Shown one piece after another: positions 45,921 through 50,516 of a stretch of 64,000 nt of DNA. The position numbers were made by a program, and so were the translations under genes. Each line of letters starts with the position of its first letter. The first letter of the stretch is position 1. The DNA comes from Escherichia coli. Its GTDB lineage: Bacteria > Pseudomonadota > Gammaproteobacteria > Enterobacterales > Enterobacteriaceae. Location: NCBI RefSeq assembly GCF_041886205.1, contig NZ_CP169029.1; one strand, 5' to 3'. The notes under the pieces were generated by a model. It searched no databases, had not been told where the DNA came from, and saw only the letters and a list, made by a program, of their open reading frames with translations.

Positions 45921-45928
45921 TCACCTCT

Positions 45929-47410
45929 CTACACTAACCCCAGGCGCTGAAACTGCTCTGGCGGCGCATCATTGTCTTTCATCAACTGAATCAGCAACGC
46001 GATCATCCGGGCCTCGATCGCATCATCATGAATCGGATGCAGCTGCTGCGGATCGTTTTGCAGATCAAACAGCAAATGACCAAACTGATTCAGCCCCTTA
46101 TATTTCTCCTGTGCCGGGATGCGTAGCACCTTTAACCCTTTGGTGAAACGAAACGGTGGAGCCAGCGATAAAGCCCGCATCTCATCCACCGGATAGCGGC
46201 TGTTCATTTTGCAAGCCATTAAGGTGTAGTTAGCAATATCATCCTCACGCCCCGGCAGCGCGGCACGCATATACACATAACGCCCATCGGTTACGTTGAC
46301 ATGACCACTGAAGACACCAAATATAACCGCACTGCGTACCGGTTCATCGTGGCTGACCGTTTTCGCCAGCGGTTGCCCCTGCACATCGGGCGGCACCGGC
46401 TGCTGAAAAAAGTCATACAACGTAGGTGCCCAGTCGATCATCTGCACCAGCGCCTGACGCCGTTCGCCTTTTACACCGCTGCGCGGATCCCATATAAACA
46501 GCGGGTTATTCGCCACTTCGTTGTAATAAGGCATCTGGTTTTTCGCCCACCAGCCATGCTCACCAAGTAAAAAACCGTGGTCGGTGCCAACAATCAGCAT
46601 GGTGTCTCGCCACAGATCGTGCTCATCCATCAGGTCGAGAATGCGCCCCAGGTTACGATCGCACATCGATACCAGCGAGCGATATCGGCAGCGGATATGC
46701 TCCACGGCCTCGTCGCTTTCCTGAACCCTGCCACGTGGCCAGTCATAATACGGCCCGCTCCAGTCATCCTCATATAACGAAAGGTACTCTTCCGTTGTGT
46801 AAAACGGCTCGTGCGGATCAAACGTTTCGACCTGCAATAACCAGTTATCTTGCGCGTGGTTTTTGTGGATAAATGCACAACCCGCGTCAAAGACTTTGGT
46901 TTGGGGAAAATCCGCTTCCTGCTGAATATATTCCCGGTTGGCCCAGTCATGACGCCACAGGCCAGAAACACCGCCGCCGGTCTGCTTTTGCGGCTCCCGT
47001 AGCACCTCGGGAATAGGCGGTTGCGCAACGCTCGCCTGCCAGTGATCGCCTTCCTGGCCGCGCACAATCTCCCATGAACTGTAGCGATTATGGTAATTTC
47101 CGCCACCATCTTCCCAGTAATGCAAATGATCGCTTATCAGGTGGGTATAGATCCCCGCCTTTGTAAGCAGCTCCGGCATGGAGTCGTCAAACGGTTCTAA
47201 CGGCCCCCACTCCCGGTGCAGAAAATTGCATCGCCCGGTATGCAGCTCCCGTCGGGCGGGCATGCAGGGCATACTCCCGACGTAGCTGTTTTCAAAGGTG
47301 GCGGCATGTGCCGCCAGGCGTTGGAAGTTCTCTGCTTTTGTCAATAAGTCGCCATACGGGGGTAAATATCTTTTGTTCAGGCTATCGAACAGGAGAATAA
47401 TGGCTTTCAT
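45929..47410 (-). CDS. Cys-type (formylglycine) sulfatase, predicted cytoplasmic (accessory)
   Basis: 493-aa ORF; intact sulfatase signature C-x-P-x-R-x4-T-G (CMPARRELHTGR) near residue 48; no N-terminal signal peptide (MKAIILLFDSLNKRYLPPYGD); ATG at 47410. Confidence 0.85.
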   Translation of the reverse strand: MKAIILLFDSLNKRYLPPYGDLLTKAENFQRLAAHAATFENSYVGSMPCMPARRELHTGRCNFLHREWGPLEPFDDSMPELLTKAGIYTHLISDHLHYWEDGGGNYHNRYSSWEIVRGQEGDHWQASVAQPPIPEVLREPQKQTGGGVSGLWRHDWANREYIQQEADFPQTKVFDAGCAFIHKNHAQDNWLLQVETFDPHEPFYTTEEYLSLYEDDWSGPYYDWPRGRVQESDEAVEHIRCRYRSLVSMCDRNLGRILDLMDEHDLWRDTMLIVGTDHGFLLGEHGWWAKNQMPYYNEVANNPLFIWDPRSGVKGERRQALVQMIDWAPTLYDFFQQPVPPDVQGQPLAKTVSHDEPVRSAVIFGVFSGHVNVTDGRYVYMRAALPGREDDIANYTLMACKMNSRYPVDEMRALSLAPPFRFTKGLKVLRIPAQEKYKGLNQFGHLLFDLQNDPQQLHPIHDDAIEARMIALLIQLMKDNDAPPEQFQRLGLV

Positions 47411-47422
47411 TGCTCATCCCTT

Positions 47423-47743
47423 TTATTTGTTTATCAGATAAGGGAAATGCTGTTGGACGACTTCATAAATCTGTGCACCAATCGTTTCACCATCCATAAT
47501 ATTTTCAATCGGGATCAGATATTGCCCGTGTTTCGGGTCCAGACTGACTACGTCGAGTAATTTTTTGGAAATAGCAAAAATATCTGCCCAGTCGGTAAAT
47601 CCTCCCACCTCACCTGCGGCAGTATGTTCCATTTCAACTTTGAACTCATATTTCGTCAGTGCTTTTTTAACGACCGTTTGTAACATCACGCTACTACCGA
47701 CACCATAACCACAGACAAACAGAATATTAATTGTATCTTTCAT
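47423..47743 (-). CDS. PTS EIIB component, ascorbate/galactitol-type (accessory)
   Basis: 106-aa ORF with N-terminal phospho-Cys loop ILFVCGYGVGSS, resembling UlaB-type EIIB; tightly spaced between the EIIC and sulfatase genes. Confidence 0.85.
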   Translation of the reverse strand: MKDTINILFVCGYGVGSSVMLQTVVKKALTKYEFKVEMEHTAAGEVGGFTDWADIFAISKKLLDVVSLDPKHGQYLIPIENIMDGETIGAQIYEVVQQHFPYLINK

Positions 47744-47764
47744 TTTTACATCCTTAATAGTGAA

Positions 47765-49090
47765 TTATCCCGCGTAAGGACCAAGGTGGAATGTTGCAGC
47801 GATAAATTTCAGAACTTCACAAATAGCAGGCCATACAGTTGCCCAGTCAAATATTCCTGTCCAGCCGACGCCATTTTCAGCAAGCCCGGTTAACGGAATA
47901 GCCCACACCGTACCGAAGGTCTGAATAATACCCAGCAAGAAGGTACAGATAATTACGGAGCGGTATCCGCCCATGCGGTTTGCTAAAACGCCAATCGGGC
48001 CGCCTGAGAAAAATAACGGTACAAAGCCTGGCAATACCATAATGGGGCTGTGGATCAGTAATAAGATACCCATCGAGAAAATGGTGCCAAAAGTACAGAA
48101 GACAAAACCTAACGTTGCGGCTTTGGGTGAAAAAGGCAACAGCGCGGCGACATCGACGGCGGGAATGGCATTAGGAATAAAGCGATCCTGCCAGCCTTTA
48201 AAAGAACCGTTAATTTCACCGACCATCATGCGCACGCCCTGCAACAGAATGACCATGTACATGGAGAACTGTAAGCCCAGGTTGATAATATAGATGTACC
48301 AGGGTTTACCTTTTGCCATCATCTGAACGTTATCGATGCCCGTGGAGAGCAGGAACCCGCCAACAAACAGCGTCATCACAATGGCGATAGCCGTCACGTT
48401 GTGGTTAAAAATCGCCAGCCAGCCGGGGAGTTTCAGGTTTTCAGCATCGTGCTTTTCCGGGTCGCCAAATTTATGCGCGAATTTGGAGAAAAACCACAAA
48501 CCCAACATCTGGTTATGGGCAATGGTAAAACCGGCATCTTTGGTCACTTTGGCAATGGGTTTAGCAATGAGCGTGGTGGAAAAAGCCCAGAATATACCCG
48601 TTAATACCCCGGCGATAATAATCGATGTAGTCCAGCTAAATCCTAACCAAAAAACGATTAACCATAATACTGCCTGAGAATGTGACACACCGGTATTACC
48701 GGTCAGGAATATTCCTTTGGCACCGGTATAGCGACCAAACAGCACCAGTAAGAGGTTGGTAAAAAACGCCAGAACAAATACATAACCTACGTAACCAAAA
48801 TTATCCCCCAACGCAATTTGCGTTGCGGCTTTCATGGCGTAGGAATCCATTAAATAACCGTGAACGCCATAGGCTTTACTTACCGCTTCTGCCACCGGTT
48901 TAAAGGTTGCGGAAAACTGAAAACCACCAAATAGCACCATCATTAATCCCACCATGGCACTGACCATACCGGTGATTATTTTGATGGGCGATTTTTTATC
49001 GAGGGCATAACCAATGCCCACCAGCAAACCAATTAATATTGCGGGTTCGGTTAAAAACGTTTGAATAACATCTATGAATTTGGCAAACAT
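47765..49090 (-). CDS. PTS EIIC permease, ascorbate (UlaA/SgaT) family (accessory)
   Basis: ORF track 47765..49108; clear similarity to UlaA (e.g. LQGVRMMVGEI...PGFVPLFFSGGPIGVLANRMGGYRS versus UlaA TQGVRMFVAEL...[25 protein letters not shown]). Start preferred at ATG 49090 (MFAKFIDV), which has a GGAGGG Shine-Dalgarno 10 nt upstream; 49108 is the alternative. Confidence 0.85.
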   Translation of the reverse strand: MFAKFIDVIQTFLTEPAILIGLLVGIGYALDKKSPIKIITGMVSAMVGLMMVLFGGFQFSATFKPVAEAVSKAYGVHGYLMDSYAMKAATQIALGDNFGYVGYVFVLAFFTNLLLVLFGRYTGAKGIFLTGNTGVSHSQAVLWLIVFWLGFSWTTSIIIAGVLTGIFWAFSTTLIAKPIAKVTKDAGFTIAHNQMLGLWFFSKFAHKFGDPEKHDAENLKLPGWLAIFNHNVTAIAIVMTLFVGGFLLSTGIDNVQMMAKGKPWYIYIINLGLQFSMYMVILLQGVRMMVGEINGSFKGWQDRFIPNAIPAVDVAALLPFSPKAATLGFVFCTFGTIFSMGILLLIHSPIMVLPGFVPLFFSGGPIGVLANRMGGYRSVIICTFLLGIIQTFGTVWAIPLTGLAENGVGWTGIFDWATVWPAICEVLKFIAATFHLGPYAG

Positions 49091-49296
49091 CGTCGGAACG
49101 CCCTCCATAAGCGTACATTTCCGTTGTCAATGCATGAACCTTCTGCTGACGTTAATAATGCTTCAGGTATTTTTTATTTTTCGCTAAGCGATGCCTCTGC
49201 TAGTATTCGGTAAACGCACTGTAGTAATCAAAACAGTTCATTTAAAGATCTTATTTGATTATTTGTGATTTGATTTGCAAAAATAGCGCAATATAT

Positions 49297-49338
49297 AACC
49301 GTGATCGATCGGTTAATATTAATCGATCGATCACGGTT
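49297..49338. promoter_or_regulatory. 42-bp near-perfect palindrome between the rlmC stop and the PTS-sulfatase cassette promoter (operator, terminator or insertion-junction candidate)
   Basis: aaccgtgatcgatcggtt-aatatt-aatcgatcgatcacggtt: 18-bp arms with one mismatch around a central AATATT. Confidence 0.4.
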
Positions 49339-49388
49339 ATTATTTGGAATGGATGTATGCCGAAGTGATATTGATTTGAGTGATGTAT

Positions 49389-50516
49389 TTACATTTTTAC
49401 CAGCAGCGTCAGCACTTCATAGTGCGCGGTGTGCGGGAACATATCAAAAAGCTGTACCCGTTCAATACGAAACCCAGGCAGTTCGCGGATATCTTTCGCC
49501 ATAGTTTGGGCGTTACAGCTGGAGTAGATAATAAAACGCGGTGCCATCGTTGAGAGATAATCACACAGCGGTTTACCAATGCCGCGGCGCGGCGGGTTAA
49601 CCAGCACCAGCTCCGGCACCTCCCCCTGAGCGGTGGCAAACTGAGTGGAGTCCAGCGCCTGAAATTGCAAACGCGTTAAGCCCAGTTCAGCGGCTGACTG
49701 CTTTGCACAGGCAATGGCCTCTGGCGCAATTTCGATCCCGGTTAACTGCATGTCAGGCGTCGCGCAGTGTAAACCAAAGCCCCCCACACCGCAGAACAGA
49801 TCCCACATATGTTTAACCGGCAGCTGTCGTACCCAGTCGCGCGCGGTGGCGTACAACTGGCTGGCGACAGCCGGATTAGTCTGGAAGAAACTTTGCGGAC
49901 GGATCCACAGCGGTACGTCATTAAAACGCTCCGCCAGCGACTGTTGTTCGGTCAGGTAGATCTCCGTCTCCCCTTCCATAATCGCCATATGTACCGGCTG
50001 AATATTGACGGTAATAACTTTCAGCTGCGGTAGTTGTTCCTGTAACCACGGCAATGCCTTACGCAGTTGTGCCAGTTTGGTTTCAGAACGCAGTACAAAG
50101 CGCAGCATCATGCCGCCATCGCTCTGGCTTTCAGTCAGCAGAATGTATTTCAGTTCGCCACGCTTACGCGCCACGTTGTAGGGCGTTAACCCCGCTCGGG
50201 CGATAAACGGTTTTAGCGCCGCAAAAACGGGCGCAAATGAGGCAGGATAAAGCGGGCAGTCACAAAGGTCTTCTGGTGTGCCGTCGCGATGCAGCATACC
50301 GAGCAGTGGTTTTTCAACGCTACCACTCACCACCATTTTGGCTTTATTACGAAACCCTTGTTCCGGGCCTGACACCGGCGCGCACCATTCCTCAACCGGA
50401 AAGTCGGCGAGCAGATTTTTAAGATCGGCGGTTTTAGCGGAGAGTTGCTCTGGAATCGGCTGCGTTATCCACTGACAGGAACGACAGCGACCCGCGTCGT
50501 AAAGTGCGCACTGCAT
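49389..50516 (-). CDS. rlmC: 23S rRNA (uracil747-C5)-methyltransferase RlmC
   Basis: 375-aa ORF with N-terminal Cys cluster (CRSCQW) and SAM-dependent MTase motifs ([12 protein letters not shown]). Confidence 0.95.

Follow-up and report, generated by a model that had tools for sequence, protein, structure and literature searches.

The 64-kb window analysed here, a stretch of 64,000 nucleotides of Escherichia coli DNA, carries three minus-strand genes between the convergent genes artJ (plus strand, ending at 45878) and rlmC (minus strand, 49389-50516). They code for a PTS EIIC of the UlaA/SgaT family that belongs to a sulfatase-linked subfamily (47765..49108; 447 amino acids with the PGAP start), a 106-long UlaB-like EIIB with its cysteine in FVCGYGVGSS (47423..47743) and a 493-long cytoplasmic Cys-type (formylglycine) sulfatase of the S1 family (45929..47410). 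The ORF list and the RefSeq annotation agree with the sequence-only reading on these tightly packed ORFs and on the convergent flanks, and RefSeq has the same gene trio in O157:H7 EDL933 and in wlxctx60, a strain that is 100% identical here. The intergenic spacers of 21 and 12 bp are operon-like, suggesting co-transcription. An alternative EIIC start at 49090, giving a protein of 441 amino acids, may be the true one because it is preceded 11 nt upstream by GGAGG and agrees with the start of the Enterobacter homolog. K-12-like strains have no genes in this interval, in agreement with the sequence-only reading, their artJ and rlmC stop codons being only 28 bp apart.

A 71-bp block upstream of EIIC (49216..49286, minus strand) travels with the cassette. 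No other upstream stretch is strongly conserved between E. coli, Salmonella and Enterobacter, the last of which has the cassette at a different locus. This putative promoter and operator region has three TTTGATT motifs within 71 bp, an arrangement found only here in the window. A CRP-like site is predicted at 49264..49279 (minus strand) from its resemblance to the consensus, TGTGA-N6-TTGCA when read on the plus strand; its half-sites are invariant, and Enterobacter has another 6-bp spacer between them. Close to the predicted start of transcription, GTTTTGATTAC (49224..49234, minus strand) is a candidate repressor operator, possibly for UlaR, and TTTTGATTA is invariant in the four aligned upstream regions (4/4). 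In K-12, the 10-mer GTTTTGATTA is also present between ulaG and ulaA, and TTTGATT is present upstream of ulaR, two regions that are both bound by UlaR (PMC5934670). The resemblance is that of a 10-mer in AT-rich DNA, and the cassette is possibly under UlaR control.

Between the stop codons of the sulfatase gene (45929) and artJ (45878), the GC-rich hairpin TTTGCCGGAGTGGG-CGAA-CCCCCACTCCGGCAAA (45886..45919) replaces a different hairpin of empty-site strains; it is likely a shared terminator, and the cassette haplotype has its right-hand border here. On the other side, the terminator scan gives a GATC-rich palindrome with a 20-bp stem directly downstream of rlmC (49296..49339; RNA fold energy -29.3 kcal/mol, z = -5.8) that has no Rfam match. 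It is kept in Salmonella with changes in both arms; Enterobacter and empty-site E. coli lack it. The palindrome, which marks the left-hand border region, likely terminates rlmC in the cassette haplotype or else binds a protein.

Homology searches support the gene identities proposed from the sequence, giving the expected Pfam matches at scores that chance cannot explain. The sulfatase matches Sulfatase (9e-27, residues 4-334) and SGSH_C (8e-9); since the first domain begins at residue 4, leaving no space for a signal peptide, the enzyme is predicted to be cytoplasmic. Its C-x-P-x-R motif is C49-M-P-A-R53, and D9, C49, R53, H95, H200, D277-H278 and K290 are invariant among 84 family members. 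A gene for the maturase FGE adjoins the sulfatase gene in Neobacillus and in 15/80 homolog loci of the genome_contigs set, genes for the maturase anSME do so in nine loci, and one anSME passes the NCBIfam equivalog (481 bits, cutoff 441). The motif, the invariant catalytic set and the neighbouring maturases argue for a genuine formylglycine sulfatase. The canonical active-site lysine of signature II aligns with an invariant aspartate of the family, D94, and the chemistry could thus be atypical. AlphaFold models the surroundings of the active site poorly, with pLDDT below 50 in catalytic loops, which precludes arguments from docking.

EIIB matches PTS_IIB (2e-10) and is 29% identical to K-12 UlaB, its phospho-accepting cysteine aligning with UlaB Cys9; its best NCBIfam matches are ascorbate IIB/IIBC models, all below cutoff. 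EIIC gives strong hits to EIIC-GAT (6e-97), to NCBIfam NF009550 'PTS sugar transporter subunit IIC' (959 bits, cutoff 583) and to E. coli UlaA, with which it shares 38% identity (PDB 4rp8, 4e-92; 5zov, 5e-94). This low identity and a score under the cutoff of the NCBIfam ascorbate IIC equivalog (318 < 380) both count against an ascorbate-type substrate. Comparison with the vitamin-C-contacting residues of UlaA (PMC6048161) shows that EIIC keeps half of the pocket (Y87, H194, D314, F362, R288) and has smaller residues in the other half. The substitutions S59G, T86S, H135N, I136T/A, Q139S/A, Q195N and I358V are found in almost all sulfatase-linked EIICs examined, the exceptions being Q135 in one locus, P86 in two and a position 358 that is V, T or I. 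Among the L-Asc-family representatives compared, the signature G59/N135/T136/S139/N195 is restricted to sulfatase-linked EIICs, while H135/Q139/Q195 are kept in many unrelated members at 35-40% identity. In UlaA, S59 and R288 touch O3 of ascorbate, next to O2 (PMC6048161).

Among 5426 complete E. coli genomes, 566 (~10%) carry the cassette, always as a single chromosomal copy, and the other 4860 lack it. The idea that it was inserted there is not supported. Salmonella enterica, including subsp. arizonae, has the cassette at the identical rlmC-artJ site, its nucleotide identity to E. coli (77-82%) is like that of flanking core genes (75-82%), and the borders show neither IS elements nor an integrase nor direct repeats. 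The shared site and core-like divergence make an ancestral cassette, lost in ~90% of E. coli, more likely than a recent insertion.

E. coli, Salmonella, Enterobacter and many Firmicutes, including gut species, share the gene order EIIC-EIIB-sulfatase. The enterobacterial form lacks an EIIA, a regulator and catabolic genes; Firmicute modules add their own EIIA_2 gene and a DeoR regulator. In two homologous proteins (P0044 and P0086) EIIA_2 is fused to the carboxyl terminus of the sulfatase. The EIIAs of homolog clusters share 36-42% identity with UlaC; their phospho-histidine is aligned, and ascorbate IIA is their best NCBIfam model. The sulfatase family is very large (hits in at least 594 species), and 80 homolog loci were compared, the 15 closest (sulfatase at least 61% identical) and 65 more distant. 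PTS genes are linked to 14/15 of the former and to 0/65 of the latter, which have CUT1 ABC sugar transporters instead. The coupling of PTS uptake to cytoplasmic desulfation, already proposed from the sequence, is thus well supported by gene order from Enterobacteria to Firmicutes, EIIA::sulfatase fusions and adjacent FGE/anSME genes. The linkage further predicts that the substrate of the sulfatase is a phosphorylated sulfate ester.

Ula catabolic genes share the cluster in five of the 15 close loci, where the module lies among genes for UlaG (L-ascorbate-6-P lactonase) and UlaD/E/F in five independent lineages. The cluster of Neobacillus niacini runs EIIA-EIIC-EIIB-sulfatase-UlaG-UlaD-UlaE-UlaF and that of a Clostridium UlaG-EIIA-EIIC-EIIB-sulfatase-x-UlaF-UlaE, and the sulfatase-linked EIIC is the sole EIIC of both clusters. 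Their UlaG homologs pass the NCBIfam L-ascorbate-6-P lactonase equivalog (653 and 663 bits, cutoff 306), as does a UlaD homolog its own (327, cutoff 250). The 65 loci devoid of PTS genes give one UlaE-like match and no other Ula gene. No intact ula set is found within 10 kb at the remaining ten of the 15 close loci, one of which has a partial UlaF-like match only, so the link to ascorbate rests on the five lineages and the pocket.

We favour the hypothesis, at a probability of roughly 0.58, that the cassette is the substrate-specific half of a PTS pathway for sulfated L-ascorbate, most probably L-ascorbate-2-sulfate. This compound is a stable vitamin C metabolite made and excreted by animals. 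It is described as routinely detected in mammalian plasma, urine and faeces. EIIC would bind the sulfated lactone in a pocket enlarged relative to that for vitamin C, and EIIB would phosphorylate it during transport, at O6 by analogy to UlaABC, to yield ascorbate-2-sulfate-6-phosphate. The sulfatase would then strip the sulfate to leave L-ascorbate-6-phosphate, to be converted to D-xylulose-5-P by UlaG, UlaD, UlaE and UlaF of the core genome. The cassette would borrow these enzymes and UlaC as EIIA from the ula regulon, present in 5346/5426 E. coli genomes, and perhaps UlaR and CRP for its control. If so, carriers import sulfated vitamin C, desulfate it intracellularly and catabolise the remainder by the known ascorbate pathway. 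Among the substrates suggested by the sequence-only reading, ula linkage and the modified pocket favour ascorbate-2-sulfate over mucin- or glycosaminoglycan-derived sugars. Its view that no such pathway is characterised agrees with our literature searches, which found no publication on a PTS-sulfatase route for ascorbate sulfate.

The same logic could serve another sulfated sugar, sugar acid or lactone, such as a mucin- or glycosaminoglycan-derived monosaccharide, leading to an ordinary sugar-phosphate. The ten stand-alone loci fit this idea, as do distant family members whose neighbours, judged from sequence inspection alone, are ABC transporters for oligosaccharides and a gene resembling GH3 glycosidases. 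The closest structures by sequence also include GlcNAc-6-sulfatases and mucin-desulfating sulfatases (7p24, 5g2v), but at a weak 14-19% identity, mainly over the conserved C-terminal half. Catabolic genes of the nag, aga or uronate routes are missing from the PTS-linked loci, and a 6-sulfate on a hexose would block the usual position of PTS phosphorylation. Given also the L-ascorbate family and half-kept pocket of EIIC and the ula genes within the same operons, we consider such a substrate unlikely though not negligible. Sulfate release might alternatively serve sulfur scavenging rather than carbon catabolism: bacterial arylsulfatases are classic sulfate-starvation proteins, the enterobacterial cassette has no catabolic genes, and a divergent arylsulfotransferase gene adjoins that of Enterobacter. 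This is quite unlikely considering that Firmicute versions are under DeoR- or PRD-type sugar regulators, in ula/pentose-phosphate clusters with a transketolase and a match to a fructose-6-P aldolase/transaldolase-family model, and that the E. coli upstream block seems to resemble CRP rather than CysB/Cbl sites.

Hydrolysis of a non-sulfate ester, with the enzyme being a phosphatase or phosphonate monoester hydrolase for ascorbate-2-phosphate or a related phospho-compound, appears very improbable. Its nearest group in profile searches is that of the SpAS1/SpAS2 arylsulfatases and phosphonate monoester hydrolases (4upi, 4upl, 2vqr, 2w8s), in a superfamily known for promiscuity, the second NCBIfam match is a 'phosphoric/sulfuric ester hydrolase PehA' model, and the lysine to aspartate change at signature II points the same way. 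Nevertheless, the formylglycine motif and adjacent FGE/anSME genes are typical of sulfatases, every match is an S1 family member, and we know of no natural pool of ascorbate-2-phosphate. The least credible alternative is that the E. coli cassette is a non-functional remnant, despite its absence from most genomes, its lack of EIIA, regulator and dedicated maturase, and decay alleles (IS1 within EIIC in one strain; truncated sulfatases P0031 and P0119). Between E. coli haplotypes that diverged deeply, dN/dS is 0.013-0.056 at dS of 0.43-0.82 (0.013 for EIIC against the O157 allele), indicative of strong purifying selection on a minimal yet probably functional cassette. Salmonella and Enterobacter retain its reading frames without interruption, and its promoter block is conserved. 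Moreover, the core genome offers UlaC and anSME homologs, and E. coli matures heterologous Cys-type sulfatases.

The closest known system to the proposed ascorbate-sulfate pathway is UlaABC of the E. coli ula regulon for L-ascorbate fermentation (TC 4.A.7), which shares the EIIC fold and family, the aligned EIIB cysteine, a UlaC-like EIIA in homolog clusters and, in several lineages, physical linkage to UlaG/D/E/F. The cassette EIIC differs in forming a separate subfamily, always paired with a sulfatase, with seven smaller pocket positions. The cytosolic SpAS1/SpAS2 and phosphonate-monoester-hydrolase group (4upi, 4upl, 2vqr) has in common with the cassette enzyme the alkaline-phosphatase-superfamily sulfatase fold, C-x-P-x-R and DHG...GEHG...K motifs, cytoplasmic location and, as predicted, dependence on FGE or anSME. 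In contrast, the cassette sulfatase is 14-19% identical to any solved structure, has the signature-II aspartate and is fused or operon-linked to PTS components.

Cytoplasmic sulfatases for imported sulfated sugars are encoded by E. coli yidJ-yidK and the Bifidobacterium breve GlcNAc-6-sulfate cluster. An uncharacterised operon of S. pneumoniae combines a Lac-type PTS, a sulfatase and an anSME (PMC3302838). All three join a transporter to desulfation that is intracellular and follows uptake, as opposed to periplasmic or extracellular, but they use SSS, ABC/MFS and Lac-type PTS transporters with other sulfatase subfamilies and have no link to ascorbate catabolism, the PTS-linked examples having no known substrate. 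The proposed reaction itself, hydrolysis of the enol 2-sulfate of L-ascorbate by a formylglycine sulfatase, is carried out by mammalian and fish arylsulfatases. These eukaryotic enzymes differ in being lysosomal, in acting on the non-phosphorylated compound and in having no coupling to transport.

The interval between artJ (45147-45878, plus strand, stop codon at 45878) and rlmC (minus strand, stop codon at 49389) holds three minus-strand genes, found where the sequence-only reading had placed them. They encode an L-ascorbate-family PTS EIIC of 447 amino acids (47765-49108), an EIIB of 106 amino acids (47423-47743) and a sulfatase of 493 amino acids (45929-47410), with intergenic gaps of 21 and 12 bp. 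An alternative EIIC start at 49090, the one chosen in that reading, gives a 441-residue protein, lies 11 nt downstream of GGAGG and agrees with the start of its Enterobacter counterpart. Pfam returned the families expected for the three products, EIIC-GAT (PF03611, 6e-97, residues 18-412), PTS_IIB (2e-10) and Sulfatase (9e-27) plus SGSH_C, and at the level of sequence homology these assignments are unambiguous. RefSeq annotates the same trio in E. coli wlxctx60, a strain from Asian black bear faeces in Japan that is 100% identical to the window, and in O157:H7 EDL933; public annotation labels the genes only as "PTS sugar transporter subunit IIC/IIB" and "sulfatase".

EIIC belongs to the same L-Asc family as UlaA, the EIIC of the E. 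coli L-ascorbate (Ula) system, with which it shares 38% identity. It matches the UlaA structures strongly (PDB 5zov, 5.5e-94; 4rp8, 4.3e-92). It passes the generic NCBIfam model NF009550, "PTS sugar transporter subunit IIC", with 959 bits and falls below both ascorbate IIC equivalog cutoffs (NF006919, 318 vs 380 bits; NF007094, 353 vs 687); judged by NCBI's cutoff, it is not a UlaA ortholog. Crystallography and ITC identified T86, Y87, H135, I136, Q139, H194, Q195, D314, I358, F362 and M410 as the vitamin-C-binding residues of UlaA (PMC6048161). The cassette EIIC keeps four of these eleven (Y87, H194, D314 and F362), as well as R288, and has S86, N135, T136, S139, N195, V358 and I410 at the other seven, leaving the pocket half-altered. 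Almost every sulfatase-linked EIIC examined carries smaller residues (S59G, T86S, H135N, I136T/A, Q139S/A, Q195N and I358V), the few exceptions falling at positions 86, 135 and 358. Since H135, Q139 and Q195 are retained by paralogous EIICs of the same loci and by many distant L-Asc-family representatives (35-40% identity), the pocket change is, on these alignments, specific to the sulfatase-linked EIIC clade. S59 and R288 of UlaA touch ascorbate O3, the neighbour of O2 (PMC6048161), and an ascorbate-shaped pocket with extra room near O3/O2 would suit an O2 substituent. The EIIB cysteine aligns with Cys9 of UlaB. No EIIA gene was found in the cassette or its flanks; in homolog clusters EIIA is a separate UlaC-like gene or a fusion to the sulfatase, and these EIIAs are 36-42% identical to UlaC with the phospho-histidine aligned.

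The sulfatase shares with S1 formylglycine sulfatases the C/S-x-P-x-R motif, here C49-M-P-A-R53. D9, H95, H200, D277-H278 and K290 are invariant across 84 sequences of the family, and R226 and K436 are so in the PTS-linked clade alone. It differs from the S1 enzymes in signature II, where S-D-H-L-H (residues 93-97, about 47120-47134) replaces the canonical G-K-x-H; the lysine column aligns, with modest confidence for this segment, to D94, which all 84 members share and which may be a sign of atypical substrate binding. The match to the Pfam Sulfatase model starts early, with residue 4 aligned to model position 4, and the N-terminus MKAIILLFDSLN forms the first β-strand, bearing the metal ligand D9. 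This leaves no space for a signal peptide, in agreement with the cytoplasmic location proposed from sequence alone. Genes for the formylglycine-generating maturases lie close to many homologs: FGE (PF03781) adjoins the module in Neobacillus and the sulfatase in 15 of the 80 best loci, and anSME genes are adjacent in nine, one of them passing NF010321 (481 bits, cutoff 441). Such neighbours indicate that the enzyme is a genuine formylglycine sulfatase; the E. coli cassette itself contains no FGE or anSME gene. A profile comparison puts cytosolic arylsulfatases and phosphonate monoester hydrolases nearest to it among solved structures, which fits, if weakly, an enol- or aryl-type sulfate as substrate. 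Substrate inference from structure was abandoned, as the AlphaFold2 model (14 sequences) reached a pLDDT of 70.8 but dropped under 50 in its catalytic loops, a quality insufficient for analysing the pocket; Foldseek with this model returned generic S1 sulfatases at a TM of about 0.6.

Homologs of the sulfatase reach 86% identity in Salmonella, 79-82% in Enterobacter, Kluyvera and Yokenella, and 60-67% in many Firmicutes. A scan of one genome per species detected a relative with 53-67% identity in at least 594 species of Firmicutes, Actinobacteria, Chloroflexi, Planctomycetes, Proteobacteria and Lokiarchaeota. Among the best 80 loci inspected, EIIC and EIIB genes adjoin the sulfatase in 14 of the 15 closest (at least 61% identity) and in none of the other 65, whose neighbours are CUT1 ABC sugar transporters, FGE or anSME. 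EIIB and a sulfatase of the same family also come after the EIIC that serves as the 50%-identity representative of its subfamily. The gene order is DeoR - EIIC - EIIB - sulfatase - EIIA in Clostridium porci, where stop and start codons overlap, DeoR - EIIC - EIIB - sulfatase::EIIA in a Firmicute MAG, and PRD/EIIA regulator - FGE - EIIC - EIIB - sulfatase in Neobacillus niacini; a PTS_EIIA_2 domain is fused to the sulfatase in two cluster representatives (643 and 635 aa). The recurrence of this module makes the coupling a conserved, clade-defining trait, and the link between PTS import and desulfation suspected from the E. coli genes is thereby borne out. Conservation of the family is exceptionally high, with 53-59% identity holding across Paenibacillus, Streptomyces, Chloroflexi, Planctomycetes, Rhizobiales and Lokiarchaeota MAGs (loci L029-L093). 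Outside the PTS clade its members are mostly linked to CUT1 ABC transporters, often with several paralogs per genome (three in Paenibacillus thalictri). Sequence inspection of the non-PTS neighbourhoods identified LacI-, PadR- and histidine-kinase-like genes, and no specific substrate clue was found among them. Enterobacter hormaechei carries the three genes alone, elsewhere on its chromosome, between yidE/ibpAB and a divergent arylsulfotransferase gene (PF05935; loci L011/L012, 6466-7881) that gave no NCBIfam match. This adjacency may be a functional link with the sulfatase PTS or a coincidence.

A tblastn search of the homolog loci with the K-12 Ula proteins located ula catabolic genes within the sulfatase-PTS cluster in five lineages. 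In Neobacillus niacini the genes are co-directional in the order EIIA-EIIC-EIIB-sulfatase-UlaG-UlaD-UlaE-UlaF. A Clostridium cluster reads UlaG-EIIA-EIIC-EIIB-sulfatase-x-UlaF-UlaE and continues with transketolase and a gene that fits a fructose-6-P aldolase/transaldolase-family model. The remaining lineages are Bacillus sp. FJAT-50079, Olsenella sp. and an Oscillospiraceae MAG. The Neobacillus and Clostridium operons have no EIIC besides the sulfatase-type one. Their UlaG homologs pass the NCBIfam L-ascorbate-6-phosphate lactonase equivalog (653 and 663 bits vs 306), and in Neobacillus UlaD also passes the model for 3-dehydro-L-gulonate-6-P decarboxylase. Near the 65 non-PTS loci the same search gave one UlaE-like match and no other Ula gene. 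ORFs of 339-353 aa in two Clostridia sulfatase/ula/transketolase clusters (L027, 6290-7327; L019, 3082-5159) have no NCBIfam match, and the one in L027, an operon without a UlaD homolog, may be a non-orthologous replacement.

Of 5426 complete E. coli genomes, 566 have the cassette, in every case as a single chromosomal copy. Its alleles are at least 99% identical to the window in 6 genomes, 95-99% in 148 and 90-95% in 412, the last group including O157:H7, O55:H7 and O145. The trio is also carried by Shigella, Salmonella enterica, Enterobacter and many gut Clostridia. The sequence-only reading had described the cassette as inserted between artJ and rlmC, a view that the comparisons do not support. 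Salmonella enterica, including subsp. arizonae, has it at the same rlmC-artJ site, and E. coli and Salmonella share 77-82% nucleotide identity in the cassette genes, against 75-82% in the core genes on either side. The borders coincide exactly with the two stop codons, and no integrase, IS element, other mobility gene or direct repeat was found there; GC content (0.41-0.56) is not strikingly foreign. Insertion as a mobile element or genomic island was rejected on these grounds. The shared site with core-like divergence indicates that the cassette was probably present in the ancestor of E. coli and Salmonella and later lost in most E. coli, and is not a recent insertion. Window and O157 haplotypes differ by a dS of 0.43-0.82 in the cassette, 0.35 in artJ and 0.08 in rlmC, with a cassette dN/dS of 0.013-0.056. 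By these rates the cassette haplotypes are old, recombining and under strong purifying selection. At the nucleotide level artJ is 92.6% identical between window and O157 and its neighbours artM, rlmC and ybjO about 98%, so the deep haplotype split reaches beyond the cassette and includes artJ, a pattern suggestive of linked ancient alleles or of imports by recombination.

E. coli strains without the cassette have either 28 bp with a different terminator hairpin between the artJ and rlmC stop codons or, as in L095 and L096, a REP/BIME-like palindromic filler of about 170-200 bp. The rlmC gene of empty-site strains ends in ...LVKQ* where the window has ...LVKM*. Not counting the cassette haplotypes, the locus thus occurs in at least three structural forms. 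Decay alleles also occur: IS1 splits EIIC in one strain, E. coli ECNB21-M121 (L098), and truncated sulfatases of 378 and 323 aa (proteins P0031 and P0119) recur in a number of E. coli assemblies.

We favour, with odds that we put at about even (0.5), the hypothesis that the cassette belongs to an unrecognised vitamin C route. EIIC and EIIB would import and phosphorylate ascorbate-2-sulfate, the cytoplasmic sulfatase would yield L-ascorbate-6-P and sulfate, and UlaG, UlaD, UlaE and UlaF would convert L-ascorbate-6-P to D-xylulose-5-P. The system would include the first PTS for a sulfated substrate and the first sulfatase for a phosphorylated sulfate ester (ascorbate-2-sulfate-6-phosphate), feeding O157:H7-lineage E. 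coli, Salmonella and many gut Firmicutes on a host-excreted conjugate via Ula. Ascorbic acid 2-sulfate is a standard metabolite of mammalian plasma, urine and faeces. Mammalian arylsulfatases hydrolyse it. The enterobacterial cassette has no EIIA, regulator or catabolic genes, and its bareness makes sense if the core ula regulon, present in 5346 of 5426 E. coli genomes, supplies the missing parts; UlaC would be borrowed as EIIA. Conversion of the sulfatase cysteine to formylglycine would fall to host systems, and E. coli is able to mature heterologous Cys-type sulfatases.

Two independent lines, the ula linkage and the EIIC pocket, point to a sulfated L-ascorbate as substrate. They favour ascorbate-2-sulfate among the examples first proposed from the sequence, and the other sulfated substrates stay as a rival: an intact ula set is missing from the vicinity of two-thirds of the close loci, and we consider it doubtful, given those two lines, that the PTS and sulfatase handle another such compound. 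The sulfate released could itself be what the cell gains, and a role in sulfur scavenging appears unlikely beside operons that join the sulfatase to ula catabolic genes. Action of the sulfatase on a non-sulfate ester, to be set beside its phosphonate monoester hydrolase relatives and Asp94, is quite improbable for an enzyme whose homologs have maturase genes as neighbours. That the E. coli cassette is a remnant, a reading to be set beside its reduced gene content, is very improbable at the dN/dS observed.

Full-text literature searches found no study of the cassette or of bacterial ascorbate-sulfate catabolism, and no description of a PTS with a sulfate-ester cargo and a cytoplasmic sulfatase acting on the phosphorylated intermediate to feed Ula, which upholds the earlier statement that the pathway is not a characterised one. 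Streptococcus pneumoniae has an uncharacterised operon of a Lac-type PTS and a sulfatase (PMC3302838), and a 2011 survey noted a sulfatase inside the Sebaldella ula regulon, regarded by its authors as an unrelated insertion. The parts, an L-Asc-family PTS and an S1 formylglycine sulfatase, are of known kinds; their combination is not. If correct, the ascorbate-2-sulfate hypothesis would supply both substrate and pathway for a conserved and so far uncharacterised trio whose genes occur in important pathogens, widen PTS substrate chemistry to sulfate esters and define a sulfatase acting on a sugar-phosphate. A host-derived vitamin C conjugate would join the gut nutrients that separate pathogen lineages from K-12-like commensals, and the wider sulfatase family, spread over many phyla and Lokiarchaeota, would be a large untapped cytoplasmic class for imported small sulfated metabolites.

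In the leader upstream of EIIC, conservation among E. coli, Salmonella and Enterobacter is confined to a 71-bp block (49216-49286). The block contains a candidate CRP-like site, TGTGA-N6-TTGCA, whose half-sites are invariant and whose spacer varies, together with a possible -10 element and the invariant TTTTGATTA, a candidate operator for the Ula regulator UlaR. Transcription is predicted to start near 49230. The 10-mer GTTTTGATTA within TTTTGATTA is common to the ulaG-ulaA intergenic region, its core TTTGATT is found again upstream of ulaR, and the block is enriched in TTTGATT motifs. UlaR binds both the ulaG-ulaA intergenic region and the region upstream of ulaR (PMC5934670). Control of the cassette by CRP and UlaR is an attractive lead, not a finding. 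Simple scans gave 4 promoter-like sites vs a shuffle mean of 6.4 and 7 terminator-like sites vs 4.6, the latter not significant; their sole useful match was a perfect palindrome with a 20-bp stem at 49296-49339 (TAACCGTGATCGATCG...CGATCGATCACGGTTA), about 50 nt downstream of the rlmC stop codon. Both arms carry tandem GATC (Dam) sites, and the RNA fold has a z-score of -5.8. In Salmonella the palindrome persists with matching arm changes, and neither Enterobacter nor empty-site E. coli has it; the Rfam scan of the region matched nothing above threshold, its output being miRNA noise on the palindrome. The palindrome may act as rlmC terminator in the cassette haplotype, or as a protein-binding or Dam-sensitive site.

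Elsewhere in the window, a minus-strand ORF of ~590-600 aa at about 38902-40704 is annotated as "pentapeptide repeat-containing protein" in the identical RefSeq genome. It adjoins ybjP, and the Salmonella locus runs from ybjP directly to ybjQ/amiD; it is probably another accessory gene.
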